Shown: positions 392-63,988, counted from the first letter of the stretch. The stretch: 64,000 nucleotides of DNA from Candidatus Angelobacter sp. (GCA_035606845.1 DATNEA010000072.1:24234-88233), one strand, 5' to 3'. Program-made: numbers and translations. Notes: a model not told the origin generated them from the letters alone.

Positions 392-416
392 TGTAGGAGC
401 CGACGTGAGGAGGCTC
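392..416 (+). repeat. REP-like family A copy (TGTAGGAGCCGACGTGAGGAGGCTC)
   Basis: Exact reverse complement of 6815-6839; related copies near 33135, 33778, 39163-39238, 56723, 58057. Confidence 0.85.
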
Positions 417-615
417 TCGAATTTTTCGCACGGAAATGATCCATCTGCCAACGAATGGGAGCTTGTTCGACGCTCGCCCTCACCCTTTCCCTAGCATCTG
501 CTGGTTTTTGCAATGACCGCTTGTCCTCTAAAGGCAAAGTCAGTCATTGGTCATATATGGTGTTGGCCTCGCGTATCGCGACATCTACAGTTTACGGAAG
601 GCTGAAAAGGGTGCG

Positions 616-1008
616 TCACTCGACTTTGGTGGCGATCCACCAAGTTGTGCCGCTGCTATCTTTGACCGCGCCACGCTTGTTTTCGTCCTGTCGCTTAGTT
701 GGCATTTGGACGGAAATAGCTCCCGCGTTGAGCGCTTTGCGGTAGGTAGCGTCCGCGTCCGCAACGTAGATATGGACGTGGGAGGGAAGCGCAGGCCACA
801 TCGGCGCGGCGTCAGCGATCATAATTACGGTGTCCTCAATGCGAACTTCAGAGTGGATTACTTTGCCGTCGCCGGTGGCAAAGCGGCGTAATTTGGTAGC
901 GTCGAAGACACGCGCCAAGAAATCCACTGTGGCATCCGCGCCGTTGACGACGAGGTAAGGTGAAACGGTGGAATAACCGTGCGGCTTATGTTGCGAGCTT
1001 GTTTTCAT
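616..1008 (-). CDS. VOC/glyoxalase family protein (PhnB-like)
   Basis: KPHGYSTVSPYLVV...HSEVRIEDTVIMIAD...VKDSSGTTWWIAT pattern. Confidence 0.85.
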   Translation of the reverse strand: MKTSSQHKPHGYSTVSPYLVVNGADATVDFLARVFDATKLRRFATGDGKVIHSEVRIEDTVIMIADAAPMWPALPSHVHIYVADADATYRKALNAGAISVQMPTKRQDENKRGAVKDSSGTTWWIATKVE

Positions 1009-1069
1009 GTTGTGCGCATCTTACAGGCTCTGGCGTGGGCTGTATTGTAGAAATTTGAATTGGTTTCGT

Positions 1070-1882
1070 TTACAATCGAGCGTGGTTCTGATGGTCAGTG
1101 CGGTGGGTTAGATACGAGCCCGGATTGAGGCCCGAAAAAGCCCGAAATTCGTGGTTTAGATGAGCCTGATCAAAATAGCCACATTGAATTGCAAGATCGG
1201 CCCAATCCACAATGCCAGCTTGCGGGATGTGGCTAAGTGTATTTTGGAAGCGATGCAGGCGGCAAAATAGTTTCGGCGTCAAACCGACTTCTTTGGTGAA
1301 AACCGTGATAAACCGCCTCGAACTCAACCCGACTTTCCCGACGACACGGGAAATGGGACCTACATTTTCTCTGGTTTGGAATTCGCGAAGGGCAAATGCG
1401 ACCGCCGGATGCCGCGCAGTTCCCTGATTCAATCGCCTCAGCAGCATATTTTCGAGCAGGTGGAACCGGGATTTTGCGTCCGGCTCGGCCACCAGCCTGT
1501 CTCGCAATTCCCAGGCCTGATCAGCCCATAAGGCGTCAAGGGAAACATGTGCGTTATGCAACAAATCCGTCGGCGAACCGAGGAATGGCCAAATGCCACC
1601 GGGTTTGAAATGCACACCCATAAGGGACTCCATATCGGTGGTATCAACAATGGAAAAATCCGAACGTGGACCGGCAATCAATGCACCCCGGAAACGCTCA
1701 AAGCGGTCGATACCTTGCGGCACGGAAACATTTAGCGAATTTTGGTGCAGATTGAAAATGATCTGAACGTTAGCCGAGGGGAGGACGCGCTCGCGCATGT
1801 GCGAAGGGCGGCCCCGGTGAAACCATAACGTCTCCACATAATCCGATAGGGGAGCACAAGGAGCGTGGGCAAGGAACACCAT
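1070..1882 (-). CDS. AraC family transcriptional regulator (DUF6597-like N-terminus)
   Basis: C-terminal double HTH (VGLTPKLFCRLHRF, WADLAIQCGYFDQAHLNHEFRAFSG); upstream of the VOC gene. Confidence 0.9.
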   Translation of the reverse strand: MVFLAHAPCAPLSDYVETLWFHRGRPSHMRERVLPSANVQIIFNLHQNSLNVSVPQGIDRFERFRGALIAGPRSDFSIVDTTDMESLMGVHFKPGGIWPFLGSPTDLLHNAHVSLDALWADQAWELRDRLVAEPDAKSRFHLLENMLLRRLNQGTARHPAVAFALREFQTRENVGPISRVVGKVGLSSRRFITVFTKEVGLTPKLFCRLHRFQNTLSHIPQAGIVDWADLAIQCGYFDQAHLNHEFRAFSGLNPGSYLTHRTDHQNHARL

Positions 1883-2807: not shown

Positions 2808-4433
2808 TCAAGGATTTGCCTCGGCGGCGGCGGGCTTGGCGGATTGGCTCAGCTCGGTGGCTCGTTGTTCGATGGCGGGCCGGCCCGGATAATCCGGCAC
2901 TTCATCAGCCAGGGCTTTGAGATCGGCGGATGCGTTGTTGGTTTTTCCGGCGGCGATGAATTTGTCCGCGAGTTTAAGCCGGATGCGCACGCGTTGCAGC
3001 GGGCTAGGGGAAAGGTCCAGCGATCTTTGATAGGTTTCGATGGCCGAAGCCGGCATGCCTTCCGCGGCATAAATATCGCCGAGCTTTTCCGTCAGGACGG
3101 CGCTGCGGCCGGTTGCGGGGAGGTTTTGCAGGACGGCCGCCATTTGAGCGAGGCTTTTGCCGTGCAACAGATCCACATTGATGGCGCGCGCATAGGTCCA
3201 TTCCAGGCCCTTGTTTTTCGTGCCTTGCTGTTCGTTCAATCGTTGTTGGAGCGTCATGGCGAATGGCCGATACAGCGGATCGCCCACGACGGTCGTTTGC
3301 CACGAAAGAGTCGACTGGCAGGCATAGGCGGCTTCGCCAAAGGTGAAATGAGACAAGATCCAGCGCGCGCAAAAGATGGAGACATCCGGCGTGCCGCTGA
3401 TGTAAGGCTCGTTCACGGAGCCCATGCTGCAAGTGGCGCCTTTGGCGAGCAAAGGCCCGACCCAGCGCTGTGTCGCGCTGCGAATCGTTGCCGCGTTGAA
3501 GGAATGAAGGTGATAGGCGAACGCGCCCGGCATGAACTCAACGTTTTTCTGGGCGAATGGCCCCGACACGTTTTCATCATACCAGCCGCAATAAATCGCA
3601 ATCTGACTCATGGGAAAATCGGCTGGAAACGTGCGTGGGTTTTCGTCGATGACCGTATCATAGCCGCCAAAAATCTGGCAGATTTTCGCCGCGCCCATGA
3701 TCCAAGCGTCGCCCATGGCCAGCGCTGAATTGGTGGGGACGTCGCGCAAATCGAAGTACGCGCGGCCGCCGAGCCCGTTGGTTTCGGCTTCCATGGCCTT
3801 GTCGACGAGCGCGCGCGCGATGGAAGCGCTCGGTCCGTCGAGTCGCGCGACCATGAGGATGCCGTTGGTGGGATTGAAGTCGGCGGAGTTCGTGTGCGTG
3901 TAGACGTTGTTCTCGAAAAGGCCCGTCCGCTGATAGCCTCGCCCGGCCAGCGGCAGCAACGCGAGTTCGTTGTCCACGGCCGCGTCATTGCGCCGCAATT
4001 CCGGCCGGAGACTGTCCGGAACCTCCTCTTTCAAACTGGGGTCTGCTTCAATTCGCAGCGGCACGCCGTAGCAAAGAACGGCGTAGCGGATTTTGGAGCT
4101 GGTCACTTTGCGCACGGTTTTTGCCGGCTGATGGTTGGTGGCGGGAATGCTTTCCGAGCCGATGCGCCACAGTTTTTTGCTTTCCAATTCCTTGGCTAAA
4201 GGCTTTTCCAGCGAATCGTGATATTCCGCCCGCGAAATGTCTTCATTGGTGGTGAGGGCGAAACCGAAAATCTGGTTTTTCGGCACGCGCCTGCAGGCGG
4301 CGTAATGTTCCGCCACGTCCTTCGAACCCGGCATGCGGCTGTTGTAGATGATGACGACTTCGTCGCCCGTCTCGGCGGCACTGAGAATGCCGGTGAAGCC
4401 GAAGAGCCCAATGATTGCCAAAAATTTCCACAT
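2808..4433 (-). CDS. TIGR03790-like exported protein with C-terminal TPR
   Basis: Signal peptide; VARLDGP, YCGWY, GAFAYHLHSFNA, GSVNEPY, VGDPLYRPF motifs; start at ATG 4433 chosen. Confidence 0.8.
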   Translation of the reverse strand: MWKFLAIIGLFGFTGILSAAETGDEVVIIYNSRMPGSKDVAEHYAACRRVPKNQIFGFALTTNEDISRAEYHDSLEKPLAKELESKKLWRIGSESIPATNHQPAKTVRKVTSSKIRYAVLCYGVPLRIEADPSLKEEVPDSLRPELRRNDAAVDNELALLPLAGRGYQRTGLFENNVYTHTNSADFNPTNGILMVARLDGPSASIARALVDKAMEAETNGLGGRAYFDLRDVPTNSALAMGDAWIMGAAKICQIFGGYDTVIDENPRTFPADFPMSQIAIYCGWYDENVSGPFAQKNVEFMPGAFAYHLHSFNAATIRSATQRWVGPLLAKGATCSMGSVNEPYISGTPDVSIFCARWILSHFTFGEAAYACQSTLSWQTTVVGDPLYRPFAMTLQQRLNEQQGTKNKGLEWTYARAINVDLLHGKSLAQMAAVLQNLPATGRSAVLTEKLGDIYAAEGMPASAIETYQRSLDLSPSPLQRVRIRLKLADKFIAAGKTNNASADLKALADEVPDYPGRPAIEQRATELSQSAKPAAAEANP

Positions 4434-4469
4434 TGAATGAGACAAGAAATTACCCCGAAGCGGCCTTCC

Positions 4470-5267
4470 TCACAAGTGTTGGCCTGCGCAATCCACTTTG
4501 AGGCCGTCGTAGGCGAACATCACGCCGGGCGGCAATTCTGCCTGGGAGAGGTCGTGATCGTAGTCGTGGGTCAAATGCGTGAAATAAGTGCGTTGCGCCC
4601 CAATGCGGCGCGCGGTGGTGAGCGCTTCGTCCAGGCTCATGTGCGTCGGATGCGGCGCTTTCCGCAGCGCGTCCAGCACGGCGACTTCCACGCCGCGGAC
4701 TTTTTCCACGACCTCCATCGGCACTTCTTTGCAATCGCTCAGGTAAGCCAGGCGTTTCTTTCCATTTTGGACAAAGAGATAGCCGTTGGTGTTCATGGAG
4801 CCGTGCGGCAGTGGCAGCGGAATGATTTCCAAATCGCCGAGCGTGAACGGGCCTTCGACGATGTGCGGTTCGGGAATGAAATACCCTTTCGGCCACGGCC
4901 CGCTGTGGAATGCGTAAGGGTAAATGCGCTTGAGTGCTTCCATGGTGCGTTCGTTCGCGTAAATGGGCAGGGCGGTGCCGCCGCGCAAATCGCAAAAACG
5001 CCGGCAATCGTCCAGGCCCATCACGTGGTCCGCGTGCGAGTGCGTGAAAACGACCGCATCGAGCCAGTTGAGTTTCTCGCGCAGGCATTGCAGGCGAAAT
5101 TCCGGCGTGGTGTCGATGACGAGCTTGAGTTTTTCAGTGGCAATGTAAATGGAGGGACGGGTGCGCCAATTTTTGGGGTTGGCGAGAAATTCGGGCGGAT
5201 AATCCTTGCCAATAATAGGGACGCCCTGCGAAGTGCCGGTGCCGAGAAAAATAAATTCAAATGCCAT
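4470..5267 (-). CDS. MBL-fold metallohydrolase (PhnP-like)
   Basis: [30 protein letters not shown] motifs. Confidence 0.9.
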
Positions 5268-5291
5268 GCGTCCAGCCAAGTTAACGGAAAC

Positions 5292-5365
5292 GACACGAAT
5301 TTCACGAATTTTTACGAATTGACAGGAACAGTGAGTAATTCGTGCGAATTAGTGAAATTCGTGTC
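5292..5365. repeat. Inverted 9-bp tandem repeat (CACGAATTT)x3 ... (AATTCGTG)x3
   Basis: Directly visible between the divergent MBL gene and recN. Confidence 0.85.
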
Positions 5366-5417
5366 CACTTTCCTTTTTGCATCCGCGGCCTTCTGTGTTT
5401 ATCTGTGCGCGTTTAGA

Positions 5418-7283
5418 ATGCTGACGACGCTGCGCATCAAAAATCTCGCCCTGGTTGCTGACCTGACGCTGGAACTCCAGCCCGGTTGCAATGTCATTAC
5501 CGGCGAAACCGGCGCGGGCAAATCGATTCTCATCGGGGCGCTGAATTTGGTGTTGGGCGAGCGCGCGGATCGGACGCTCATTCGCAGCGGCAGTGAGAGT
5601 TGTTCGGTCGAGGCGGTGTTTGATGTTTCGGCCTTATGCGGGAAAAACAGTCTCCCTCGCCCCGTGACGAAGGAGCGGGGAGAGGGTCGGCTGATAAAAG
5701 CCTCCTCACCCCAACCCTCTCCTCCTTTTAGGGGAGGAGAGGGAGAAAAATCGCCCTCGGCCATTTTTCGCGGTTCGATTGGAGAATCTCCGCTGGAAAT
5801 ATTCCTGGAAGAAAACGGCCTGGAGCCGTGCGAGGAAAATCAGTTGGTGCTCAAGCGCGTGTTCACCAGCGCGGGTGCGAACCGGCAATTCGTCAATGGC
5901 TCGCCCACCACGCTGGCGGCGCTGGCGTCCATCGGCGAGTGGCTGGTGGACATTCATGGGCCGCATGAGCATCAGTCGCTGCTGAACGCGTCGAAGCAAC
6001 TGGCGATTTTGGACGCTTTTGGCGGATTGCAACCGGAACGCGAGGCGTTTGCGGAATTGGTTCGGCGGCGGACTGCGTTGGAGGCGGAGAAAGCCGCGCT
6101 CATTGTGGATGAAAAAACCTATGCGCAGCAGTTGGATTTGCTTCGGTTTCAAACGAACGAAATCGCTTCGGCGCGCCTGCAGCCCGGCGAGGACGAGCGC
6201 ATCGAGCAGGAGCATCAACGCGCCAGCAACGCGGCGAAATTGCTGCAATTGAGCCAGGCGGCGCTGGATTTGATTTCGGAAAACGAAAGCGCGCTTCTGA
6301 CGCAGGCGGGCATCGTGGGGCGCACGTTGCAGGAATTGCAGCGCATCGATCCCAGCGCGGCGGAGATTGTTTCGCAACACGAGCAGGCGGTGAGCGCGCT
6401 GCGCGATTTGCAGGCCAGCCTTTCGCATTACGTGGACAAAGTGGATGTGAATCCGGAACGGCATCAGGAATTGGAGGAGCGATTGAATCTTCTGCATTCC
6501 CTCAAGCGCAAATATGGCGCGACGCTCGCGGAGGTGATTGCGTTTGGCGACGAGGCGAAGCAGAAATTGCAAAACCTGGAGCAGCGCGATGAAGAATTGG
6601 CGCGATTGAACGCGGCGCTGGCGAAATTGGGTGCGGAAATTTTGCGCGCCGGAAAGGAGTTGTCGACCAAACGGAAAAAAATTGTTCCGCAACTTGGCAA
6701 AGCGGTCAGCAAACAGTTGGCGGACCTGGGATTCAAGCAGAGCAAGTTTGAGGTGGCGATCACGACCGATTCTGTAGGAGACGAGATGACGAGTCTCAAA
6801 CCGCACAAAAGTCAGAGCCTCCTCACGTCGGCTCCTACACTAAAAGCGAGCGGGTTCGATGCCGTTGAATTCCAATTTGCGCCCAACCCGGGCGAACCGG
6901 CCAAGCCGTTGCGCGCGATTGCTTCGTCCGGCGAACTGGCGCGGGTGATGCTGGCGTTGAAAACGGTGCTCGCGGCGGAGGATGAAATCCCCGTGCTCGT
7001 GTTTGACGAAGTGGATGCGAACGTGGGCGGCGAAACGGCGAATGCGGTCGGCGAAAAAATGCGCCAGATTGCCGACAAGCGACAGGTCCTGTGCATCACG
7101 CATCTTCCGCAGGTCGCCGCGGCGGGCACGGCGCATTATGTCGTAAGCAAACAGGTGAAGGACGGCCGGACCATTTCGGACATTTCCTTGTTGAACAAGA
7201 AGGAGCGGGTGACGGAATTGACGCGCATGCTGGGCGGCCAAACGGACGCCGCGCGGAAACATGCGGAGGCGTTGTTGAAGTGA
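5418..7283 (+). CDS. recN: DNA repair protein RecN, with two in-frame repeat-derived insertions
   Basis: MLTTLRIKNLAL, TGETGAGKS Walker A, DIHGPHEHQ, ASSGELAR signature, FDEVDAN, CITHLPQVAA. Confidence 0.95.
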   Translation: MLTTLRIKNLALVADLTLELQPGCNVITGETGAGKSILIGALNLVLGERADRTLIRSGSESCSVEAVFDVSALCGKNSLPRPVTKERGEGRLIKASSPQPSPPFRGGEGEKSPSAIFRGSIGESPLEIFLEENGLEPCEENQLVLKRVFTSAGANRQFVNGSPTTLAALASIGEWLVDIHGPHEHQSLLNASKQLAILDAFGGLQPEREAFAELVRRRTALEAEKAALIVDEKTYAQQLDLLRFQTNEIASARLQPGEDERIEQEHQRASNAAKLLQLSQAALDLISENESALLTQAGIVGRTLQELQRIDPSAAEIVSQHEQAVSALRDLQASLSHYVDKVDVNPERHQELEERLNLLHSLKRKYGATLAEVIAFGDEAKQKLQNLEQRDEELARLNAALAKLGAEILRAGKELSTKRKKIVPQLGKAVSKQLADLGFKQSKFEVAITTDSVGDEMTSLKPHKSQSLLTSAPTLKASGFDAVEFQFAPNPGEPAKPLRAIASSGELARVMLALKTVLAAEDEIPVLVFDEVDANVGGETANAVGEKMRQIADKRQVLCITHLPQVAAAGTAHYVVSKQVKDGRTISDISLLNKKERVTELTRMLGGQTDAARKHAEALLK

Positions 7284-7458
7284 ACGACGGGTTTGCCGGA
7301 TGCCGCGTCGTGGCGCCGGATTTCCCAACGGCGCGCGGGGAGCGCCGCCGCGATTCATTAGCCGTTTGCTTGAGTTTTCCCCCGTTCAGTTTACAATTCT
7401 AAAGTCTTTGACGCCTTGCGACGGTTCTCGTAGCGTTTGACACCATTTTTAAGGATCC

Positions 7459-10400
7459 ATGTTTGATTTTATCGTCAAAAAATTCATCGGCTCGAAAAAC
7501 GAGCGCGAAGTGAAGAAAATCCGCCCATTCATCGGCAAGATCAATGAAATCGAAAAGGGCCTGCAGAGTCTTCCCGATGAGGCGCTGCGCCAGAAAACCG
7601 CCGCGTGGAAGGAGGAGCTTTCCAAGATCGAGGACACGGACCAGCTCGCGGCGCGGTTGACGGAAATTTTGCCCGAGGCATTTGCGGTCGTGAAAAATAC
7701 CGCGCGCCGGTTGTGCGGCCAGGATGTCATCGTGCGCGGCCATCCGTTGAAATGGGAAATGGTCCATTTCGACGTGCAGTTGATCGGCGGCATTGGCTTG
7801 CACATGGGCAAAATCGCGGAAATGGCGACCGGCGAAGGCAAAACACTTGTGGGCACCTTGCCGGTGTATCTGAACGCGCTGACGGGGCGGGGCGTGCACG
7901 TGGTGACGGTGAACGATTACCTGGCCGCGCGCGACAGCGAATGGATGGGCGCGGTCTACAAATTTTTGGGGCTCTCGGTCGGTTGCATTCTGCACGACCA
8001 GCCGCCAATGGTGCGCCGCGCGCAATACGCCTGCGACATCACCTACGGCACCAACGCCGAATTCGGCTTCGATTATTTGCGCGACAACGGCATGGCCACG
8101 CGCAAGGAAGACCAGGTCCAGCGCGGCCATTACTTCGCGATCGTGGACGAAGTGGACTCGATTCTCATCGATGAAGCGCGCACGCCGTTGATCATCAGCG
8201 GGCCGGCCGTGGTCACTTACGACGAGCAATACGCCAATTTCAAACCGCAGGTGGAAGGGTTGTTTCATGCCCAGGAGCGCTTGAGCAACCGGTTTCTCAG
8301 CGAGGCCGAACAGTTGATCAAGAAACTGCATCCGGAAGACGGCTCGAACGTGAAGGATGGCGAAGCTTTGGAAAGGGAAATCGGCCTGCTGCTGTTCCGC
8401 GCCAAAACCGGCACGCCGAAGTCCGAGGCGTTGATGAAGATGCTGGAGGACCCGGAAAATCTCCGGCTCATGAACCAGGCGGAACTTTTTCTTCACAGCG
8501 ACCAGAAAAAAACCGAGCTTTACGCCGAGAAGGAACAACTGCTGTTCGCGATCGACGAAAAGAGCAACGAAGCGGATTTGACGGAGAAGGGCCGCAGTTT
8601 CATGAGCCCCAAGGATCCGGACGCGTTCATGCTGCCGGATTTGACGACGGCGTTGCACGAAATCGATACCCAGCCGGACCTCGACGGGCGTCAACGCATG
8701 GAGGCCAAGACCAAACTGCAGGGTGAGTTTGAAGCCAAGGCCCAGCGCATCCACGCCATTTCGCAATTGGTCAAGGCCTACTCGCTTTACCAAAAGGACG
8801 TCCAATATGTCGTTCAAGAAAACAAAGTCATCATCGTGGACGAAAACACGGGCCGTTTGATGACCGGGCGCCGGTGGAGCGATGGTTTGCATCAGGCGGT
8901 CGAAGCGAAGGAAGGCGTGGCCATCGAACGCGAGACCCAAACGCTCGCGACGATTACGATTCAAAATTATTTCCGGCTGTATCACAAGCTGGCCGGCATG
9001 ACCGGCACGGCCGAAACGGAGGCGTCGGAGTTCTTTGATATTTACAAATTGGGCGTGCTGGTGATCCCGACCAACCGGCCGGTCGCGCGCAAGGACGCGA
9101 ACGATTCCGTTTACAAAACCAAACGCGAGAAATACAACGCGGTCGTCAAGGAAATCAAGGAAGTCCACGGCAAAGGCCGGCCCATTCTCGTGGGCACGAT
9201 CTCGGTCGAGGTCAGCGAATTGCTTTCGCGGATGTTGAAGCGGGAAGGGATCATCCATTCCGTGCTGAACGCGAAATATCATGAGCAGGAAGCGGAAATC
9301 GTGGCCCGCGCGGGACAGCGCGGCGCGGTGACCATCGCCACGAACATGGCGGGCCGCGGCACGGACATCAAGCTGGGCGAGGGGGTCGCGGATCTGGGCG
9401 GTTTGCACGTGCTCGCCACGGAGCGGCATGAATCGCGGCGCATTGACCGGCAGTTGCGCGGCCGTTGCTCGCGCCAGGGCGATCCCGGTTCCTCGCACTT
9501 TTTCATTTCGCTCGAAGACGATTTGATGCGCCTCTTCGGCGCGGATCGCATCGTGAAAATGATGGAGCGGATGGGCCTGGAGGAGGACCAGGAACTGCAG
9601 CATCCGTTGCTGAATCATTCGGTCCAGAGCGCGCAAAAGAAAGTCGAGCAGCACAATTTCGAAATCCGCAAGCGCACGCTCGAATACGACGACGTGATGA
9701 ACAAGCAGCGCGAGGTCATTTACGGCTTCCGCAACGAGATTATCCGTGCCGCCGACGTGCGCGATCGCCTGATGGACATCATGGAGGAAGTGGTCATCAC
9801 CAAGGTGGAGGAAACGACCAAGGCTGGCGATTACAACCCGGAGCAATGGACGGTGCGCGCGCTGGCCGACTGGGTGAACCTGAATTTTCCGCTGGGCATC
9901 CCCGAAGGCGAAATTGTCAAGGCCGCGGAATCCGGCACGGAAGAGCCGGTGTCCGGCTCGTTGTACGACGGCTTGAGCGCGTCGCAGTTCGCGGTGTGCA
10001 ATTTCATTTCGGACGCCGTTCGCAAGGCTTACGATCTTAAGATCAGTTTTGAAAATCCGGATGCGTTGAAGGAAGTGGAGCGTTACACGATCCTCAGCGC
10101 CATTGACCGGCTTTGGCAGGAGCATTTGTACGAGATGGACAGCCTGCGCTACAGCATCGGCCTGCGCGGTTATGGCCAGCTCGATCCGCTCGTGGAATAC
10201 AAGGCGGAAGGTTACAAGATTTTCGACGAATTGATGGTCAACATCAAAACGGAGATTTGCCACAACATCTTCCGCAGCGCCTCGAGCCTGATGGCCTTCG
10301 AAAATTTCCTGCGCAGCATGCCCAAGCAGACGTCGCATCAATCCACGAGCGCGTTTGGCGGCAGCACGACGAACGAGGACACGAAGGGGAAGGGGAGCGA

Positions 10401-15625: not shown

Positions 15626-15653
15626 TGAATTTTAGCGTCGAAGCTGGCTCCAA

Positions 15654-15728
15654 TAGTGGCACGGGCGTCTCGCCCGTGCGATTCTGGAAAGCCGATTAAC
15701 GCGCGGGCGAGACGGCCCGCGCCACTAA
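15654..15728. repeat. REP-like family B copy (TAGTGGCACGGGCGTCTCGCCCGTG ... GCCACTA)
   Basis: Between atpF and atpH; related copies at 41038-41099, ~51440, ~55443, ~61517. Confidence 0.85.
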
Positions 15729-15731
15729 GAA

Positions 15732-16137: not shown

Positions 16138-16212
16138 TGAAACGTAAAACGTAAAACGTGAATGAGGGCCGGTGCGCCCGGTCTTTTCACGTTTCACGTT
16201 TCACGAATCACG
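16138..16212. repeat. Inverted 7-bp tandem repeat (AAACGTR)n ... (TTTCACG)n
   Basis: Between atpH and atpA; same unit at 20772-20838, 25210-25308, 26464-26499. Confidence 0.88.
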
Positions 16213-20763: not shown

Positions 20764-20771
20764 CGTGCGAG

Positions 20772-20838
20772 TTCACGTTTCACGTTTCACGTTTCAGGCG
20801 TGAACGTGTTGCGTGAAACGTAAAACGTGAAACGTGAA
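20772..20838. repeat. Inverted 7-bp tandem repeat (TTTCACG)n ... (CGTGAAA)n
   Basis: Between atpD and atpC; arms in the opposite order to the atpH-atpA copy. Confidence 0.88.
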
Positions 20839-20843
20839 TTAAA

Positions 20844-25203: not shown

Positions 25204-25209
25204 AGGATT

Positions 25210-25308
25210 CGTGAAATGTGATACGTGAACCGTGACCGCGTGAAACGTGAACATGGCAAAACGCAAAACGCATAACCAATAATCACGTTTCACGTTTTAC
25301 GTTTCACG
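25210..25308. repeat. Inverted 7-bp tandem repeat (CGTGAAA-like ... TTTCACG)
   Basis: Fills the TPR-mutT intergenic gap. Confidence 0.82.
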
Positions 25309-25315
25309 CAAAGCT

Positions 25316-38420: not shown

Positions 38421-39113
38421 TCACCACATCATCTCCACCGCATTATAAATTTCACCCGCCCGCCCACATTCCAGCGCCGCGATGATGCACCCGGTCACAT
38501 CATCACGATGAATCATATTCAGAAACCGCGCGCCGTCCCCATCCAATCGCGCCTCGACGTTCACGAATTGCTTGAACCAATAGCCGCGTCCCGGCCCGTA
38601 AATGCCGGCTACGCGCAAAATCATCGCCGCAAAATTTCTCTGTTGTCCCGCCGCCAACAGCTCCCGCTCTGCTTCCACCAGCACACGGCCCGTTTCTGTT
38701 ACTAGCTCGGACGTGCTGCTCTCATCCACCGCCGACCCGTCATTTTTGTGCGTAAACACTTGTGCTGCTCGTATGTACGAACCTGGGAGCGCCGGCGCGT
38801 CTTGCCGACCAGTCCCAACCGGCGCGAGCCATTCCACCACATTCCGCATCCCCTCGAGATAAATCCGTCGATAATCCTCCACGCCACCTCCGCCCGATGC
38901 CGCGCAATTCACGACCCAATCGAAGTCACTCGGCAACTGTTTCAATTCTGCCGAACGCGTAATATCAGCAAACAACGGCGTGATGCCTGCCGCCTCCAAC
39001 GCGCCCGCCGCCGCCTTGTTCCGCCGCAAGCCAAACACCTCATGCCTGTGACGCGCCAATTCCGCGCCCAGCGGCAGCCCCACATAACCCGCGTCAATAA
39101 TCAATACGCGCAT
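38421..39113 (-). pseudogene. NAD-dependent epimerase/SDR (YeeZ-like), degraded
   Basis: IIDAGYVG (broken GxGxxG); LRVAGIYGPGR; NMIHRDD; native HTSSTSVYAQ in a shifted frame; truncated C-terminus. Confidence 0.78.
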
Positions 39114-39301
39114 GACCAGAGTTAAACGCAAAGGCCTCCAAGAGGCAAAGCCGCAAAGTTCCCGTAGGAGCCAACGTGAGAAGACTCTCGAATTTTCTGC
39201 GCGGAAAACGTTGGAGTCTCCTCACGTCGGCTGCCACGGTTAAAGAAGGCCCGAAGATTCTTTGTCCCCGCTCCAACCTGTGTTAAGCTTTTAATTCCAA
39301 A

Positions 39302-41953
39302 ATGAGCAGTGTTGCATCACCTCAACCCACCGCCGGCGAAGCCGCGTTCGATACCCCGCGAACGCTGCCCGAGCTCCTTGCGCCCGCCGGCGATTGGGAA
39401 TGCGCCAAAGCCGCCGTCGAAAACGGCGCTGACGCGATCTATTTCGGTCTCGACAAATTCAACGCCCGAATGCGCGCGCATAATTTCACCGAGGCCGACT
39501 TGCCGCGCCTGATGGAATTCCTGCATCGCCGCGGCGTCCGCGGCTACGTCACCTTCAACACGCTCATCTTCGAAAACGAGCTCGCGGACGCCGGAAATTA
39601 TTTGCGCAGCATCATCACCGCCGGCGTGGATGCCGCAATCGTTCAGGACGTCGGCATTGCCCGGCTCATTCGCCAGCTCTCGCCGGATTTTCCCATCCAC
39701 GCCTCGACGCAAATGACCGTCACGAGCGCCGCCGGCATCGAATTCGCCCGCGAACTCGGCTGCAATCTGGTCGTCCTTGCCCGGGAATGCTCCATCAAAG
39801 AGATCGAGAGGATGCAGCAAACGTTGAATGACAAACGCCGAATGACGAATGGCAAAGAGACGAGCGCAGATGCTCCATTCGTCATTCGTCATTCGTCATT
39901 CCCCTTGGAAGTCTTCGTCCACGGCGCCCTCTGCGTGGCCTATTCCGGCCAATGCCTCACGAGCGAAGCTCTCGGTGGCCGCTCGGCCAATCGCGGCGAA
40001 TGCGCGCAAGCCTGCCGAATGCCCTATGAATTGATTTCGGACAACAAACCGGTTCCGCTGGGCGACAAAAAATATCTCTTGAGCCCGCAGGACCTCGCCG
40101 GCCTGGAAGTGTTGCCCGAATTGATCCGCAGCGGCGTCGCCTCGCTGAAAATCGAAGGCCGCCTCAAAACTCCCGAATACGTCGCCAACATCACCCGCGT
40201 CTACCGCGAAGCCATTGACGAACTCGCGAAAAATTCCGAAGCAGCCCAAACTCGAAACCCGAAACCCGAAACCCGAAACTACAATTTGGAGATGGCCTTT
40301 TCCCGCGGCCTCTACACCGGCTGGTTCGGCGGCATCAACAATCAAAAACTCGTCCACGCGCGCTTCGGAAAAAAGCGCGGCGTTTTCCTCGGCGAAATTG
40401 AATCGGTCTTGCGCGACGGAGTAGTCCTCGAACTTGCAGCCCCTCTGAAACCCGGCGATGGCGTCGTCTTCGACGCCGGCAAACCCGAAGAAAAAGAGCA
40501 GGGTGGCCGCGTCTACGAAATCAGGAAAGTACACAGAAGCGGCACTACTAAGAATCACGGAACACGGAACACGGAACACGAAGCGCACGTCGAACTCCGC
40601 TTCGGCCACGGCGACATCGATTTTTCCCGCATCCACACTGGCGACAAACTCTGGAAAACCAGCGACCCGGAACTCGACCGTCATCTGCGGCAAACGTTCG
40701 AAGGCGACGAACCGAAATTTCAGCAGCCCATCGAAATGGACGTCCACGGCCTCGCCGGCAGGCCGCTTACGCTGATTGCCCGTGACGAACAGGGCCACAT
40801 CGCCCGTGCAGATTCGGCCATGCCGCTCGCCAAAGCCGAAAAACGCCCATTGGACGACAAGCGATTGCGCGAGCAACTAGGCCGGTTGGGTGGCACGCCG
40901 TTCAAACTCGGCGAATTGAAAAATATCCTCACCGGCGAAGTCCTTCTGCCCATCAGCGAATTGAACCGTCTGCGCCGCGAAATCGTCGCGGACCTGGAAC
41001 GCCAGCGCGCCCAGCCAAAGCGGTGGACGCTTCTTGATAGTGGCACGGGCGTCTCGCCCGTGCGAACAGGGACTCACAGGCGAGACGCCCGTGCCACTAC
41101 CGCACCGCGTCTCATCGTCCTCGTACGCCATCTGGTGCAACTCGACGCCGTCCTGAACGCCGGAGTGGAAACCATCTACTGCGACTTCGAAAACCCGAAG
41201 AAATATCGAGACGCCGTAGCCGCCGCGAAACACGAAACACGGAACACGAAACACGAAATTTTCGTCGCCCCTCCGCGCATTTTCAAAACCGGCGAGGAAT
41301 GGACGCTCCAACAAGTCCGCTCCTGCGAGGCCGACGGCTATTTGATCCGCAACTACGATCATCTGAACTTTTTCGCCGACGACCGGCGCGTCTGCGATTT
41401 TTCGTTGAACATCGCCAACCACTTGTCCGCCGATTATTTCAAAAACAAATTCGGCCTCGAACGCGTCACGGCCTCGTATGATTTGAATTTCCAGCAACTC
41501 GAAGCGTTGTTCCAGGGCGCGCCGCCCGAATGGTTCGAGGTCACGATTCATCAGCACATGCCGATGTTTCACATGGAGCACTGCGTGTTTTGCGCCTTCC
41601 TTTCGAGCGGCACTGATTACACGAACTGCGGCCGTCCCTGCGACAAGCACGACGTGAAATTGCGCGACCGCGTCGGGATGGAGCACCCTTTGAAAGCCGA
41701 CGTGGGTTGCCGCAACACGGTCTTCAATGCGCTCGCTCAAACCGGCGCGGAATACGTCGAACGAATGCTATCGTTGGGCGTGGGAAATTTTCGCATCGAG
41801 TTCCTGAACGAAACCCCGGAGCAGGTGACTCAAACCATCGCCAAATATCGCCAGCTTTTGCGCGGCGAAATTTCCGGCACGAATCTCTGGCGCGAATTGC
41901 GTCTCATGAACCAACTGGGCGTCACCCGCGGCCAAATCGCCCAACGCACCTAA
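39302..41953 (+). CDS. U32-family protein with DUF3656 (RlhA-like RNA hydroxylase family), with five repeat-derived in-frame insertions
   Basis: ELLAPAG, HASTQM, HGALCVAYSGQC, SANRGECAQACR, KIEGR, HMEHCVFC. Confidence 0.92.
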   Translation: MSSVASPQPTAGEAAFDTPRTLPELLAPAGDWECAKAAVENGADAIYFGLDKFNARMRAHNFTEADLPRLMEFLHRRGVRGYVTFNTLIFENELADAGNYLRSIITAGVDAAIVQDVGIARLIRQLSPDFPIHASTQMTVTSAAGIEFARELGCNLVVLARECSIKEIERMQQTLNDKRRMTNGKETSADAPFVIRHSSFPLEVFVHGALCVAYSGQCLTSEALGGRSANRGECAQACRMPYELISDNKPVPLGDKKYLLSPQDLAGLEVLPELIRSGVASLKIEGRLKTPEYVANITRVYREAIDELAKNSEAAQTRNPKPETRNYNLEMAFSRGLYTGWFGGINNQKLVHARFGKKRGVFLGEIESVLRDGVVLELAAPLKPGDGVVFDAGKPEEKEQGGRVYEIRKVHRSGTTKNHGTRNTEHEAHVELRFGHGDIDFSRIHTGDKLWKTSDPELDRHLRQTFEGDEPKFQQPIEMDVHGLAGRPLTLIARDEQGHIARADSAMPLAKAEKRPLDDKRLREQLGRLGGTPFKLGELKNILTGEVLLPISELNRLRREIVADLERQRAQPKRWTLLDSGTGVSPVRTGTHRRDARATTAPRLIVLVRHLVQLDAVLNAGVETIYCDFENPKKYRDAVAAAKHETRNTKHEIFVAPPRIFKTGEEWTLQQVRSCEADGYLIRNYDHLNFFADDRRVCDFSLNIANHLSADYFKNKFGLERVTASYDLNFQQLEALFQGAPPEWFEVTIHQHMPMFHMEHCVFCAFLSSGTDYTNCGRPCDKHDVKLRDRVGMEHPLKADVGCRNTVFNALAQTGAEYVERMLSLGVGNFRIEFLNETPEQVTQTIAKYRQLLRGEISGTNLWRELRLMNQLGVTRGQIAQRT

Positions 41954-46159: not shown

Positions 46160-46219
46160 CAATTGACCGAAGTGTAGCGGCTCGCGTGAGCCGGTCAAGA
46201 GCTTGCGAAAGGAACGCGA

Positions 46220-46351
46220 AAAAGCTCCAAGGACCAAGCGTCCAAGCACCAGAGAAGCTCCAAAAGCCAAGCTCCAACTCATCGCCGGGCGTCATTGGTT
46301 CTTGGAGCTTGAGTTTTCTCTGGAGCTTGGAGATTGGACGCTTGGAGATTT
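46220..46351. repeat. Inverted ~7-bp tandem repeat (CTCCAAG-like ... CTTGGAG-like)
   Basis: Between the divergent surA and GH20 genes; related array at 56753-56834. Confidence 0.8.
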
Positions 46352-48402: not shown

Positions 48403-48418
48403 ATGGCAGGTCAAACGT

Positions 48419-48590
48419 AAATCCGAAGGCCGAAGCCCGAAATCCGAAAAAAATCCGAATTCCGAACTCCGAACTCGAAGCAGGATTGGCGGTGGCGGCT
48501 GATTTCAAATCACGTCCTAGCGGAGCAAACGCGCCAATTCATTTCGGGTTTCGAATTTCTTTCGGATTTCGGGCTTCGGCCTTCGGATTT
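48419..48590. repeat. Inverted 7-bp tandem repeat (TCCGAAA-like ... TTTCGGA-like)
   Basis: Long arms visible; related arrays at 30716-30756 (one arm only) and 62476-62591. Confidence 0.85.
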
Positions 48591-49987: not shown

Positions 49988-49998
49988 CTACAGAAAGG

Positions 49999-50145
49999 AA
50001 TTAACGCAAAGGCGCAAAGATGTGAAGGCGCAAAGGGCGGAAATTTTATGTGGCAGGTCGTCATTATTTGAGGAGGCGGGCCTTCAGGTCGCGGTTTCTT
50101 CGGTTTAACTTTGCGTCTTTGTTCCTTTGCGCCTTTGCGTTAATT
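49999..50145. repeat. Inverted 9-bp tandem repeat (AACGCAAAGGCGCAAAG ... CTTTGCGCCTTTGCGTT)
   Basis: Inverted arms directly visible upstream of the SET gene. Confidence 0.85.
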
Positions 50146-50222
50146 TCTGTTGCATACAAACGGCTTTAGCGATTTTTTCAATTTTCCCCGAAATAAATGT
50201 TCTCAGTTCCGTCCGTTCCCTC

Positions 50223-55556: not shown

Positions 55557-55583
55557 TAAAGTTTTCCCCGCAGTTACCGATGT
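55557..55583 (+). promoter_or_regulatory. Sigma28 promoter upstream of flgM-like gene and fliS
   Basis: TAAA-N15-ACCGATGT. Confidence 0.75.
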
Positions 55584-55605
55584 GCCAGATAGGAAATGTA
55601 GTGTT

Positions 55606-55863: not shown

Positions 55864-55888
55864 ACAAATCACTCCGCCACGCTAAAAC

Positions 55889-58045: not shown

Positions 58046-58089
58046 AATTCTGTATCTGTAGGAGCCGACGTGAGAATTCTTCTAAACCC

Positions 58090-58181
58090 TTGAACCGCGA
58101 CATATCAGCGGCTGTGTTCGGCGAGAGGCGCTGGAGCAACTTCTCCCTCTCCCATCGGATGGGAGAGGGCCGGGGTGAGGG
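58090..58181 (+). repeat. REP-like family D (...CTCCCTCTCCCATCGGATGGGAGAGGGC.GGGGTGAGGG)
   Basis: Near-identical copy at ~60310-60399; related copies at ~51535-51572, ~54660-54700 and inside recN. Confidence 0.88.
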
Positions 58182-58231
58182 TTTGGGTTCGGGAGGAGCC
58201 TCTTTTTTGAAGGAGAGGTGATCTCCCGCGC

Positions 58232-60175: not shown

Positions 60176-60427
60176 GATCTAGGTCAGCATTCAAAAGTTT
60201 ACCCGCCGCTGGAATGAGTCGACGATGAATGGATTTCAAAACCGTTCCAAAGTTTCACCCTCTCCTGTGAGGGGGAATTCTCCGAAATGAAATTCGCGCT
60301 TTGAACCCCGAACCATGACATATCGATCGCCATAGTCGACGAGAGGCGCTGGAGCAAGTTCTCCCTCTCCCATCGGATGGGAGAGGGCAGGGGTGAGGGC
60401 GGAGGTCCATACCATATTGAACGGCCT

Positions 60428-61510
60428 TCATGCCGACCCTTTCGATTTGGAATCACGAAACACGGGACACGGAACACTCACCGTCGTCCCCGGTAAATTC
60501 GCTCCAATATTCCCAACCAACGGCTTCGCTTTTTCGATGATGATCTTCTCGCAGCGGGCGATTTCCTCTTTTCGCTGCTGCAAATAGTCCTCGGCAATGG
60601 CTTGGAGATCATCGATATTGTAGAGGTAAACATTCGGCATGATGTTCACTTCCGGATCAATGTCGCGCGGCACCGCGATATCCACCAGCAGCAACGGCCG
60701 ATTTTTGCGAAGCTTCATCAATGGCTCCAATTTCGCCCGCGTCAAAATATGATGGGGCGCCGCCGTGCTGCTGATGACGATATCGACCTGCCCGAATTCA
60801 TTCGACCAATCGTCAAAGTTCACCGCGCGTCCGCCGAATTCCGCGGCCAGCGCCTGTGCGCGATCAAATGAGCGGTTGGCCACCACGATGCTCCTCGCCC
60901 CGCGCGAAAGCAGGGCGCGCGCGGTCTTCTCGCTCGTGTCACCGGCCCCGATCACCATCACGTGCCGATTTTCCAGCGACGAAAAAATCTTCTCTGCCAG
61001 CTCCACCGCCACCGAACCCACCGAAATACTTCCGCGCTGAATGCTCGTCTCGGTGCGGACATGCTTGGCCACGTTGAACGCGCGCTGAAACGCCTTGTTC
61101 AATCGCGGTCCGGTATGCCGATGTTGCAGCGCGAGGTCGTAAGCCTTTTTCAACTGCCCCAAAATCTCCGTCTCGCCCAGCACCATCGAATCCAGCCCGC
61201 AGGCCACCTTGAACAGATGGTAAACGCTCTGCGGTTCGTTCAGCGTGTAAATCTCATCCGTGAGCGGATCGCGATAGTTGTGGCACTTCACCAGAAATTG
61301 TTTCAATTCCTCGAAGGCTTTGGCCGATTCGAGCGGCGTCGAAACGTAAAGCTCCACGCGGTTGCAGGTCGAAAGAATCACCGCCTCGTCCGCAATCCCT
61401 TCGTCGCGCAGCAACTGGAGCACGGCCGGCACGCGCGCCTCGCCAAAAGCAAACCGCTCCCGCAATTCCACGGGTGACGTATGATGGCTTAGGCCGAGGA
61501 CGACGATCAT
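60428..61510 (-). CDS. hemA: Glutamyl-tRNA reductase (short form)
   Basis: LSTCNRVELY, GLDSMVLGETEILGQ, IGAG, DIAVPRD. Confidence 0.97.
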   Translation of the reverse strand: MIVVLGLSHHTSPVELRERFAFGEARVPAVLQLLRDEGIADEAVILSTCNRVELYVSTPLESAKAFEELKQFLVKCHNYRDPLTDEIYTLNEPQSVYHLFKVACGLDSMVLGETEILGQLKKAYDLALQHRHTGPRLNKAFQRAFNVAKHVRTETSIQRGSISVGSVAVELAEKIFSSLENRHVMVIGAGDTSEKTARALLSRGARSIVVANRSFDRAQALAAEFGGRAVNFDDWSNEFGQVDIVISSTAAPHHILTRAKLEPLMKLRKNRPLLLVDIAVPRDIDPEVNIMPNVYLYNIDDLQAIAEDYLQQRKEEIARCEKIIIEKAKPLVGNIGANLPGTTVSVPCPVFRDSKSKGSA

Positions 61511-61591
61511 GAGAATAGTGGCACGGGCGTCCCGCCCGTGCGAATCCTCGCCGGTTCTCGAAACTCGAAACTCGAAACTCGAAACATAGTT

Positions 61592-62425
61592 TTACGGATG
61601 ATGCAACGGAGAGAGCAGGGTGGTGCCCCAAAATGTCAGCGCCAGGAACGCAAACACCGCGATCACTCCCACCGCGAACCGCCGGCCCGATTGCGCAAAA
61701 CGCCAGCGCGAAACCAGCAGCCCCAGGTAAATCGCCCATAACAGGATCGCCCACGGGACCTTCGGATCGTTGAACAGCGGCTTGTTCTCCTTCTCGGCGA
61801 TATCTCCGCCCAGCGCCAGGCTCACCGTCAGCAAAGCAAACCCGGCCAGCACCAGCCGCCCCGTGATCACTTCCAGTTTTTGAATCGGCGGCAGCAGCGA
61901 AAGCATCGCGCGCATTTTGTGAAATTTCAAATTGTGTTCCTGCGTCAAAAACATCACCCCCGCCACCGCCGCCAGGCCAAACGCTCCAAACGCCAGCAGC
62001 GCGAGCGCCGCGTGCAAACTCGTCGGCGCGCCGCTGAATTGTGGTGTCGCCGCGTGCCTGTCCAGTTCCGGCATCAGCGCGAACACTCCCATCGCAAACA
62101 GCACCGGCGACGCAAACGCCCCCAAAAATCGCAGCCGCGCCCACAATCCAAAGGCCAAATACGCCGCCACAATCGTCCACGCGATGAAGGTCGTGGCCTC
62201 GTACAGATTGTTCACCGGGCAATGTTTCAAATCGAACCCGCGCAACATGATTGCCGCCGTATGCAGCCCGAAGGCCACGAGCAGGAGGAAATAATTGATC
62301 CAGTTATCCTGGCGAAACCCTTTGCGCCAAAGGAAAACCGAATAAATCGTGCTGATGCCGTAAATAATGACGGCCAGCAGGAAAAAATGCCGGTCAAGAT
62401 GGGGGTCTTGGTTGGTGAACCACAC
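61592..62425 (-). CDS. Cytochrome c assembly protein CcsA/HemX-like
   Basis: Multi-TM; CPVNNLYE, LHAAL, NDPKV; upstream of hemA. Confidence 0.85.
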   Translation of the reverse strand: MWFTNQDPHLDRHFFLLAVIIYGISTIYSVFLWRKGFRQDNWINYFLLLVAFGLHTAAIMLRGFDLKHCPVNNLYEATTFIAWTIVAAYLAFGLWARLRFLGAFASPVLFAMGVFALMPELDRHAATPQFSGAPTSLHAALALLAFGAFGLAAVAGVMFLTQEHNLKFHKMRAMLSLLPPIQKLEVITGRLVLAGFALLTVSLALGGDIAEKENKPLFNDPKVPWAILLWAIYLGLLVSRWRFAQSGRRFAVGVIAVFAFLALTFWGTTLLSPLHHP

Positions 62426-62590
62426 AGTGACAGGTTAATTTACCCCTGATTTCAGGCAAGCTGGAATTAGGGCTGAAATCCGAATACCGAATCCGAAATC
62501 CGATTAATCTGCCTTCAACGCTCTCTGGCCGATCTCTTTCGGTTTTCGGACTTCGGATTTCTTTCGGATTTCGGATTTCGAGTTTCGGAA

Positions 62591-63988
62591 TTAGGGCTGC
62601 CCCCCACTCAAATCCGCCGGAAATTTACCCTGCATCGTCGGAATCACTTGCGTCGGACATTTCCCGCCCGCATCCGCCAGCCCCGCCGCGATGCCCGTCG
62701 CATACGCCGTCGACGTCGAAGTCCCCGTCACCGCCCACGATTGCCCGTCATATGGCACGATGCTCGTTCCCGGCAACAACAGGTCCACGAAACTGCCGCG
62801 GTTCGCGTAATCCGCCACTTGCCCCGGCCCGCTCCCGGCCGTGACCGATTCCACTTCCGGATAGGCCGCCGGATATTCCGGCGTGGTCACCGGCTGATTG
62901 CCCGCCGCGGCGAAAAACACCACGCCTTGCTTGCTCGCATTTTGGATCAACGTATGTAAAAACGTGCTGTCACCCTGGCCGCCGAGGCTCAAATTGATCA
63001 CGTTCGCCCCCGCCTGCACGGCGTCATAAATGCCCGTTGCCACATCATACGTACTCGTCGTCTCGTTCGGCCCATACACATCCACCGACATCATCTTGGC
63101 GGATGTCTGGCCGCTCGTATTCGCCTGCACTGCGCGCCAGATCGTGTCCGCCATCGCGGTTCCATGAGTGAGTTGCGAGCCACTCGTCGCCTTGCCTGCC
63201 ACCGAAATCGAAGGCAGCATCAATTGGTCAAGATTATTTCCCAGCGTTCCAACCGAAGTATCAATCAATCCAATCACCACCTGGCAACTGCTGTCGTTCG
63301 GTGACTTCGGCGTCAAATTGAATTGCGGCGACGCGTTCGCCACACCCAGCGGCACATTCGGTGGTTCCATGGAATAATTATTTTCCACCGCCAGCACGTT
63401 TGGATTGGCCGTGAGGCAATCACGTCCCGCATTCGCCGCCGCTTCGTCCTTGAACTGCACGCGATACGTATTGAGCGCGTTGAGGCGTCCGGTCACGGTC
63501 GCATCCTTGATGCAAGGCAACCCATCGATGCTCGTGCCCGGCTTCAAAGTCACGACTAGCTCGTTCGGGATTTTGCCTGACTTCGCCGTTTTCGAAACCA
63601 GGTCTTCGGGCCGAATCAATTGCGTCGCGCTGCGCCTCGAAGTGCGAAACACGTAAAGATGCAGCGGGCCATTCGTTTGCGGGACCATGGCGAAATTCAA
63701 ATCGCCGAGCAACATCCGCAACGCCTCGCCCGCTGAAAGGTCGGCAAACTTCGTCGAAACCGTGTGCGTCACGTGCGGCTCAAGAAAAATCTCCCAGCCG
63801 GTATGCTTGGCAATTCCCGCGAGGAGCCGCGATACCGGCACCGATTGGATATCGGCGCTGACGATGTTATTATTCGTGTTCCAGTTCAGCGTGTCCGCCG
63901 CCGAAGCGCGAGTATTGGAGAACAACAGCATAAGCGCGCAATTCGCCAGGCACAGCCATCCTCGAAAACAATGTTGCATCAGGCACAA
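62591..63988 (-). CDS. Secreted S8 (subtilase) peptidase; start uncertain
   Basis: LIDT, HGTAMA, INLSLG, AAAGN, YPAAY, GTS catalytic motifs. Confidence 0.88.
   Translation of the reverse strand: MCLMQHCFRGWLCLANCALMLLFSNTRASAADTLNWNTNNNIVSADIQSVPVSRLLAGIAKHTGWEIFLEPHVTHTVSTKFADLSAGEALRMLLGDLNFAMVPQTNGPLHLYVFRTSRRSATQLIRPEDLVSKTAKSGKIPNELVVTLKPGTSIDGLPCIKDATVTGRLNALNTYRVQFKDEAAANAGRDCLTANPNVLAVENNYSMEPPNVPLGVANASPQFNLTPKSPNDSSCQVVIGLIDTSVGTLGNNLDQLMLPSISVAGKATSGSQLTHGTAMADTIWRAVQANTSGQTSAKMMSVDVYGPNETTSTYDVATGIYDAVQAGANVINLSLGGQGDSTFLHTLIQNASKQGVVFFAAAGNQPVTTPEYPAAYPEVESVTAGSGPGQVADYANRGSFVDLLLPGTSIVPYDGQSWAVTGTSTSTAYATGIAAGLADAGGKCPTQVIPTMQGKFPADLSGGQP

Follow-up and report, generated by a model that had tools for sequence, protein, structure and literature searches.

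Palindromic repeats that are translated as part of a host protein are known from several bacteria. Rickettsia palindromic elements (RPEs), which measure ~105-146 nt and occur in a reduced genome, add peptide segments to functional proteins, and the accessible parts of two papers name no gene that mobilizes them (PMC3733652, PMC3184786). Repetitive extragenic palindromic sequences (REPs) likewise lie in frame, as singlets or dimers, in known proteins, in greatest number in Opitutus terrae (Verrucomicrobia), with repair genes and tRNA synthetases among those hit, according to the accessible text of PMC3733652. Here we examine 64,000 nt of Candidatus Angelobacter sp. (GCA_035606845.1 DATNEA010000072.1:24234-88233), hereafter the window, in which recN, a U32 peptidase-family gene and hemA carry copies of short dispersed repeats in frame. 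The window is G000:C52:24234-88233, that is, part of contig C52 in an assembly (G000) of 4.97 Mb and 86 contigs, 89% complete; close protein homologs of the host carry the labels Verrucomicrobiae or Verrucomicrobiota, and 17/20 of the runs listed are soil metagenomes, which makes a soil Verrucomicrobium the likely host. We consider it probable that the coding inserts are in-frame copies of dispersed repeats, likely the ends of selfish cassettes, which are kept where the peptide is tolerated and are likely rewritten at the same sites.

The repeats of G000 resemble those of PMC3733652 in that some genes are hit twice and in that genes for REP-associated tyrosine transposases (RAYTs) are flanked by repeats. 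As far as the accessible text of that paper goes, REPs in related genes lie mostly at different sites, with recB of two Xanthomonas as the exception; in G000, unlike there, unrelated families, heptamer arrays among them, re-use the same loop across the order, and RAYT cassettes stand in frame as a whole. A comparison with RPEs, drawn in the first-pass annotation of this DNA, is justified by palindromes that lie in frame in intact protein genes and, as in RPEs, add peptide segments to functional proteins. G000 differs from the RPE case in its dozens of families of 25-150 nt, its candidate parent cassettes and its turnover of sites; we liken the two by behaviour and claim no RPE membership. In Pseudomonas fluorescens, REP doublets of fixed geometry (REPINs) replicate as units (PMC3116915, accessible part), and family F1 of G000, with its 62-nt dimers and shared spacers, is alike. 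TnpA-REP/RAYT proteins cleave and strand-transfer REPs in vitro (PMC8266576, accessible part), and fusions of repeats with open reading frames (ORFs) are reviewed in the part of PMC3184786 at hand. A RAYT clade of G000 is translated within the frame of its hosts AlaRS, MetH and ThrRS; such long fusions were discarded in PMC6006769, to judge from its accessible text.

Arrays of heptamers have relatives as well. In Geobacter metallireducens (PMC2700814) elements of four heptamers, and in Beggiatoaceae (PMC4679880) TAACTGA repeats, consist, as here, of about four tandem 7-mers in and between genes, sometimes in inverted pairs, and there as in G000 orientation decides whether coding DNA tolerates them. 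Both papers propose regulatory roles, and their accessible parts describe neither a link to four-helix-bundle genes nor unit replacement at orthologous sites. At dimorphic and polymorphic microdiversity loci (PMC2884548, accessible part) short segments are swapped at intragenic hot spots, for which homology-facilitated illegitimate recombination is proposed; those segments are mostly not repeats, whereas the segments of G000 are repeat families or cassettes. A literature search that covered few subscription papers returned nothing linking heptamers to four-helix-bundle genes or describing a RAYT in tRNA synthetases. Within main texts it returned no report of same-loop repeat replacement, and Additional file 3 of PMC3733652 may list coinciding O. 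terrae sites. In-frame REPs and intragenic heptamer arrays are already published; the new point is the turnover of repeats in the same loops across relatives, by which a curiosity of Rickettsia or of single genomes becomes a measurable process.

Repeat turnover in the same protein loops

The first-pass annotation had placed at least eight repeat copies in intact genes and one in a decayed short-chain dehydrogenase/reductase (SDR) gene, had assigned them to several unrelated families and had read them as a general process. All nine are present (two in recN, five in the U32 gene, one in hemA and one in the SDR gene; Table 1), and the rest of the genome bears out the generality: dozens of dispersed families leave at least 160 coding copies in 125/3,097 genes, compared with 6 in a shuffle null, when a single rule is applied to coding and intergenic DNA alike. 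Gene calls come from a custom hexamer-model caller, so counts close to gene ends are approximate. Coding 7-mer families were also claimed correctly, coding 9-mer families were not. Arrays of period 7 occur 151 times between genes, 51 times in coding DNA and 9 times at gene edges, compared with 0 times in genes with shuffled codons, and the hosts of 57 coding 7/14-mer arrays are, from their N-termini, presumably dnaK, pheT, smc, mutL, uvrA and similar genes. None of the nine copies is a 9-mer array, the 8/9-mer families of the window being intergenic (5292-5365, 49996-50148); coding period-9 matches genome-wide (13 vs a null of 3) are mostly GC-rich codon repeats. REP families F1 (148 loci, starting (A/G)TAG) and F2 (117 loci, starting GTAG) are ~87% intergenic. 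F1 dimers measure 62 nt in 32/58 cases, with spacers that recur across coding and intergenic copies, and F2 dimers measure 69-75 nt.

No gene in G000 holds more coding inserts than the U32 gene. An AlphaFold (AF2) model (predicted TM-score, pTM, 0.85; 72 sequences) places all five sites in loops or linkers between secondary-structure elements, four of them modelled with low confidence and site 5 as a short confident loop. Across 30 genomes of the genus and order the same five loops differ in length and in the repeat peptides they hold. With 80 metagenome loci added, each site is readable in 62-80 of 110 loci and shows 16-29 heptamer arrays built from 12-16 different units; at site 5, for instance, G007 and G008 have arrays of equal length with other units. 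The spacer at site 4 is identical to that of intergenic F1 copies, and for the site 1 repeat 34 intergenic siblings lie in other parts of the genome. Such defined loops are natural maps of insertion tolerance, in which repeats turn over between species.

Both sites in recN behave likewise. Site 1 is empty in 23/28 readable orthologs; G000 has a DUF559-type insert there, in a region 147 nt longer than in G008, and G002, G003, G004 and G029 (4/28) have another, REP-like insert at the same place. Site 2 is occupied in relatives by other REPs or heptamer arrays of many families. Folding scores against shuffles are z -4.25 for insert 1 and z -2.78 for insert 2. G029 belongs to another family, and the site-1 insert that it has in common with G002, G003 and G004 shows DNA identity of up to 94% over the insert window, with raised identity in the flanks; insert and flanks give a hint of cross-family recombination at this site.

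The pattern extends to the genome. When G000 was compared with 2.4/5.9 Mb of G008, 718 pairs of orthologs at a median identity of 83% yielded 2,544 variable regions, of which 56 and 53, respectively, were flagged for repeats and 27 were flagged in both, against 1.2 expected; the background of the detector is 55/4,994 random windows. Only 1 of the 27 co-flagged regions shares a library 13-mer. The excess stays when long, length-variable loops alone are considered (14/30 vs 19/128). Conserved gene junctions have repeats in both genomes at 150/608 places, with a 13-mer in common in 49/150, and junctions with a RAYT, GxxExxY or IVP cassette in one genome face gene-less hairpins in the other, or a pair of genes that we take to be toxin-antitoxin-like.

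Some arrays hold place and length yet switch unit between relatives. Among close pairs, units lie within one base of each other in 24/63 same-site comparisons and in 24/175 cross-site ones; same-site units are identical in 4/63 and differ by at least 3 bases in 24/63, some in shifted register. Since same-site differences of both sizes are found, concerted one-base rewriting and wholesale replacement both occur. Hairpins with mismatched arms are seen at U32 site 1 of G008 and at recN site 2 of G000. Together these data show that, contrary to the earlier proposal of newly generated loops, old loops are refilled with different repeats across the order and, for the most part, new loops are not being made. 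Activity of the mobilization proposed there shows only between species; near-identical strains carry the same inserts where covered: the contigs of runs X1-X6, compared over window positions 38400-42000 and 4400-17000, contain no clean empty/filled strain pair, their joints being short-sided or from other organisms.

Cassette genes and a RAYT inside AlaRS

Candidate sources of the repeats are cassette genes, which lie mostly between operon genes. G000 has 11 genes of the IVP four-helix-bundle family (PF05635/TIGR02436), 7 Y1/RAYT domains, 4 GxxExxY genes (from 5 matches, two of which are one broken gene) and 1 DUF559 gene. Inverted arms scoring at least 14 flank 20/23 of these cassettes compared with 4/120 random small genes, and are found at 10/11 IVP genes; most of the words in the arms turn up again across the genome. 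In IVP cassettes the arms are arrays of heptamer type, with a different unit in nearly every paralog, and those of G008 include TCGACCC and TCAACTA, which are units of coding arrays in the same genome. REP families of G000 other than F1 and F2 do have armed RAYTs. GxxExxY corresponds to Pfam PDDEXK_3, DUF559 presumably has a nuclease fold, and IVPs have a putative resemblance to Avd, the accessory protein of diversity-generating retroelements. Like 23S rRNA intervening sequences, the IVP cassettes have an IVP ORF between inverted arms; those inspected lie between protein genes and not in rRNA. Links of this kind make it testable what spreads 7-base repeats and what role IVP proteins have.

Neither a single mobilization system nor one special to this lineage, as first suggested, fits these observations. 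Repeat ends match four families of cassette genes (IVP, RAYT, GxxExxY and DUF559), all 12 genomes of the genus that were compared carry IVP genes (3-15 each) and Y1 genes (2-10 each), and intragenic REPs are reported as most numerous in Opitutus terrae (PMC3733652, accessible text).

Two IVP cassettes that nearly duplicate each other share their gene context but lie on different contigs (C51:60786 and C54:7062), which may reflect contamination (4.9%) or duplication. At C42:6570-7881 the gene upstream of an IVP cassette takes its C-terminal part from translation of the left arm, and the IVP has an internal stop. A reverse transcriptase is present in one copy: the only RVT_1 match of the genome (C68:16394-17041) lies within a 594-aa frame. 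Operon junctions such as C12:48545, C14:4180 and C15:7705 have AT-rich hairpins of 9-10-mer, GTTAAAT-type units whose place is conserved between G000 and G008; no parent cassette was identified for them.

A whole cassette inside a gene is found outside the window. The alaS gene of G000 (C49:40297-43695; L046/L227) contains, in frame, a complete RAYT with inverted arms (arm score 26), unlike the classic REPtron, which is a stand-alone intergenic gene. Its Y1 domain scores above the PF01797 cut-off and reaches 69 bits with NF047646, under the cut-off of 80. This site (B) is readable in 22/25 orthologs: 9 are empty, 4 have the RAYT cassette (one with different arms), 1 has an arm only and 8 have unrelated segments, which lengthen the site by ~15-140 residues. 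The seven foreign segments scanned have no Pfam match of their own. Foreign segments are often lower in GC content at third positions (GC3), and GC3 is lowered in ten conserved flank codons beside them too. In G003, the arm-only case, the left arm is joined directly to the right flank, which reads as an internal deletion of a RAYT cassette. Divergence of the RAYT domain between G000 and G006 (nonsynonymous, dN, 0.095; synonymous, dS, ~2.4, near saturation) indicates that the domain is under protein-level purifying selection. A domain of this type is contained in 1,809 proteins of 606-1,931 residues; the best 120 of these have 133 domains, spread over three sites in AlaRS, two in MetH and one in ThrRS, and the HUH and Tyr motifs are kept in 130 of the 133. 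Annotators should be warned that insert peptides and alaS-RAYT 'fusions' of this kind are mobile-element cargo and not domains.

Proposed mechanism, probable selection on the peptide and other explanations

The proposed route would start from the IVP, RAYT, GxxExxY and DUF559 genes that sit in operon junctions between inverted arms, with arm words that recur gene-less. A whole cassette may then come to lie in frame inside a gene, as seen once, in AlaRS, where a relative keeps only an arm remnant. REP dimers would move as units, probably through RAYTs acting in trans; an involvement of IVPs in the spread of heptamers appears likely, and GxxExxY and DUF559 proteins may nick at their own arms. 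Selection on the protein would clear copies that shift the frame, bear stops or read as hydrophobic, and leave the hydrophilic surface-loop peptides that are seen. Finally, the observed refilling of an occupied loop or junction by other families, or its rewriting unit by unit, would likely proceed by homology-guided conversion from related arrays and by recombination through conserved flanks. Such recombination may move whole loop contents, to which the flanks of the G029 insert and the low GC3 beside the AlaRS segments point thinly. A bolder version, which we regard as a long shot, would have each IVP paralog and a partner enzyme write their own four-unit array over existing arrays and hairpins and so form, with the in-frame RAYT cassettes, a family-agnostic rewriting system. 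If true, it would keep fixed loops of housekeeping proteins hypervariable throughout the order and account for the excess, long unexplained, of 7-base repeats among bacteria.

Several points weigh against deriving the inserts from cassette ends and refilling. Neither G000 (89% complete) nor the 2.4/5.9 Mb of G008 yielded a RAYT with F1 or F2 arms or an IVP whose arms have the exact U32 units, and IVPs are not known to be catalytic. Nineteen empty/filled alignments at ~83% amino-acid identity gave no readable target-site duplication or clean junction. Synonymous divergence near repeats (0.50 -> 0.42) does not exceed that near ordinary indels (0.51 -> 0.45), so recombination tracts near inserts are without a genome-wide signal. 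Loops also differ in tolerance, which the restriction to long variable loops removes only in part, and the species pairs are non-independent, so that p-values are overstated and indicative only.

Tolerance by itself might suffice: insertion would be random, few loops would accept it and old copies would be deleted, so that the same loops recur without targeting or conversion. Much of the clustering is indeed accounted for by the strong depletion of coding copies and by the peptide-level filter described below, and elements of fixed length would yield inserts of equal length without conversion. We nevertheless judge this explanation unlikely, because co-occupancy is still ~5-fold enriched among long variable loops, because in close relatives single concerted changes link units at one site more often than units across sites, and because hairpins with mismatched arms exist.

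It is improbable that heptamer arrays are products of polymerase slippage which arise and homogenize locally, with their position beside IVP genes a coincidence. Slippage predicts concerted one-base changes in all units, and the accessible part of PMC4679880 cites the idea for 7-nt repeats. However, arrays keep closely to about four units (median length 29 nt, 10-90% range 23-33), without a broad spread in unit number, and 82/151 intergenic arrays are paired as inverted arms, compared with 6/51 coding ones. The inverted arms at IVP genes and the same-site units that differ by three bases or more also speak against slippage.

Copies in genes show a pattern that fits selection on the peptide. 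The genome has 1,514 intergenic copies for its 160 coding ones, which makes coding density 36-fold lower. Among 693 conserved genes covered by G008 proteins we found 2 frame changes, 0 of them at repeats, and 14 in-frame stops, 2 of them near repeats. Heptamer arrays in genes take the hydrophilic reading direction in a ratio of 44:3, whereas those between co-oriented genes split 32:45 (p 1e-9), and this bias is a clean read-out of selection on random peptides. In sequence, the coding copies look as if filtered at the peptide level, for loops, kept frame and hydrophilic reading. We also considered whether element length is designed to keep frame, and rejected it: the lengths of intergenic dimers are not divisible by three and F1 dimers in genes stay at 62 nt, so frame depends on the junction bases. 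Placement of arms around host sequence has weak 9-nt hints in dnaK and a C43 gene and is contradicted for F1 by the shared spacers.

Inserts could alternatively be cut out of the RNA, like rRNA intervening sequences, and be absent from the protein. Many copies form strong hairpins, and the IVP family is named after such sequences. This is highly improbable all the same, since copies in conserved genes all keep frame, read as hydrophilic and sit in protein loops, 45/51 coding arrays are single arms unable to form hairpins, and the RAYT domain of AlaRS is under protein-level purifying selection. Frame, reading direction and loop placement are as expected, on sequence grounds, from translation followed by purifying selection and not from excision at the RNA level. 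We give equally little credence to host adaptation, in which repeats would be used to vary loops of DNA-repair and translation proteins. Copies are denser in conserved genes, with 8.3 per 100 kb in those with a G008 ortholog vs 3.6 in others, 7 genes have at least 3 copies against 0.3 expected, and a bias to repair genes is found in the accessible part of PMC3733652 too. Yet the peptides of different species are interchangeable, purging is the net signal, and selfish persistence in conserved, recombining genes fits the enrichment equally. Assembly artefact or pseudogenes, suggested by a metagenome-derived assembly and by the decay of the SDR gene, are already largely refuted and of negligible probability, as several inserts are covered or spanned in contigs of runs that belong to separate studies, recN and hemA score above equivalog cut-offs, recN and U32 queries have one match each in G000, and analogous inserts occur in dozens of relatives.

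Repeats and neighbouring genes of the window

Several inserts can be followed in contigs of other runs. recN site 1 is spanned by an X1 contig with 0 differences and an X5 contig with 5; X2 contigs bridge U32 site 3 (40251-41064) and site 5 (41069-41302), and X3 and X5 contigs cover U32 site 1 to its end or barely beyond. X1 or X2 may be the source sample, and X3 and X5 come from other studies. In the window a strict repeat detector finds 45 segments between genes, 6 in coding DNA and 1 at an edge, and misses the diverged copies of recN insert 1 and hemA.

Most coding copies had been credited with intergenic siblings in the window. This is clear for ~4/9 (recN insert 1, by family motif, recN insert 2, and U32 sites 2 and 4); the arrays of U32 site 3, U32 site 5 and hemA match only each other within the window. 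The copy numbers of recN insert 1 (4 and 12 loci), the SDR copy (16) and the hemA array (10) are not above a noisy blastn-short null (95th percentile 18 loci), so these calls rest on ortholog comparison together with motif or periodicity. For the SDR copy, folding is no stronger than in shuffles (z 0.5); its host has an altered Gly-rich motif, a truncation and a local frameshift stretch directly after the repeat.

Table 1. Genes, coding inserts and intergenic repeats of the window (positions counted from its first nucleotide)
Feature	Position	Strand	Evidence or relation
recN, intact, two inserts	5418..7283	+	TIGR00634 above cut-off; orthologs
recN insert 1, two diverged DUF559-type hairpins	~5651..5748	+	family motif; ortholog comparison
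recN insert 2, GTAG-type REP dimer (F2), arms of two subfamilies	6772..6840	+	117 genome loci
U32 peptidase-family/DUF3656 gene, five inserts	39302..41953	+	PF01136 + PF12392
U32 site 1, heptamer hairpin, GAATGAC/CATTCGT arms, loop residues ~172-200	39821..39903	+	40 genome loci; fold z -4.65
U32 site 2, heptamer array, CGAAACC type, inter-helix loop	40247..40280	+	
U32 site 3, heptamer array, CGGAACA type, beta-hairpin loop	40552..40583	+	
U32 site 4, REP dimer (REPIN-like), family F1, interdomain linker	41037..41100	+	148 loci; fold z -8.67
U32 site 5, heptamer array, CGAAACA type	41226..41259	+	
hemA, intact	60428..61510	-	TIGR01035 above cut-off
Heptamer array, hemA C-terminal tail	60449..60481	-	common to G004, G007, G008
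SDR/epimerase gene, decayed	38421..39113	-	PF01370; ortholog comparison
Degenerate REP-like copy in SDR gene	38779..38830	-	
Intergenic GTAG REP arm	391..436	+	sibling of recN insert 2
Intergenic 9-mer-unit hairpin	5292..5365	.	like arms of a GxxExxY cassette elsewhere in genome
Intergenic F1 REP dimer, atp operon	15652..15727	+	sibling of U32 site 4
Intergenic CGTGAAA heptamer hairpin, atp operon	16138..16212	.	CGTGAAA also arms IVP cassette on C69
Intergenic CGTGAAA heptamer hairpin, atp operon	20771..20840	.	
Intergenic CGTGAAA heptamer hairpin	25206..25311	.	
Intergenic GTAG REP dimer upstream of U32 gene	39164..39237	+	
Intergenic AAGCTCC-family hairpin	46219..46350	.	AAGCTCC family also arms IVP cassette C52:1351
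Intergenic AAATCCG heptamer hairpin	48416..48590	.	AAATCCG also arms IVP cassette on C49
Intergenic 8-mer-unit hairpin	49996..50148	.	word = arms of GxxExxY relic on C6
Intergenic GTAG arm + DUF559-type repeat	58057..58192	+	
Intergenic DUF559-type repeat	60340..60410	+	
Intergenic F1 arm + AAACTCG heptamer array	61513..61585	+	
Intergenic AAATCCG heptamer hairpin	62475..62592	.	

No tRNA gene lies in the window, and Pfam/NCBIfam scans of P0001-P0004 gave no match to intein families. Another foreign gene in a conserved operon junction, with an ORF6N domain, lies between atpA and atpG (17765-18334). A small ParE-like toxin gene with an antitoxin-like ORF upstream is found at 22263-22662 on the minus strand, between what we take to be a threonine-synthase-like gene and a MoaD-like gene, and a PIN-domain gene with a small antitoxin-like ORF at 34776-35368 on the plus strand. 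In the broken transposon debris at 35459-38214, an IS110 transposase is fragmented and a DDE_Tnp_1 fragment of IS4-like type has terminal inverted repeats at 35432-35461/36723-36752. A flagellar cluster at 50403-56721 holds two flagellin-like genes that are ~78% alike, fliD and neighbours.

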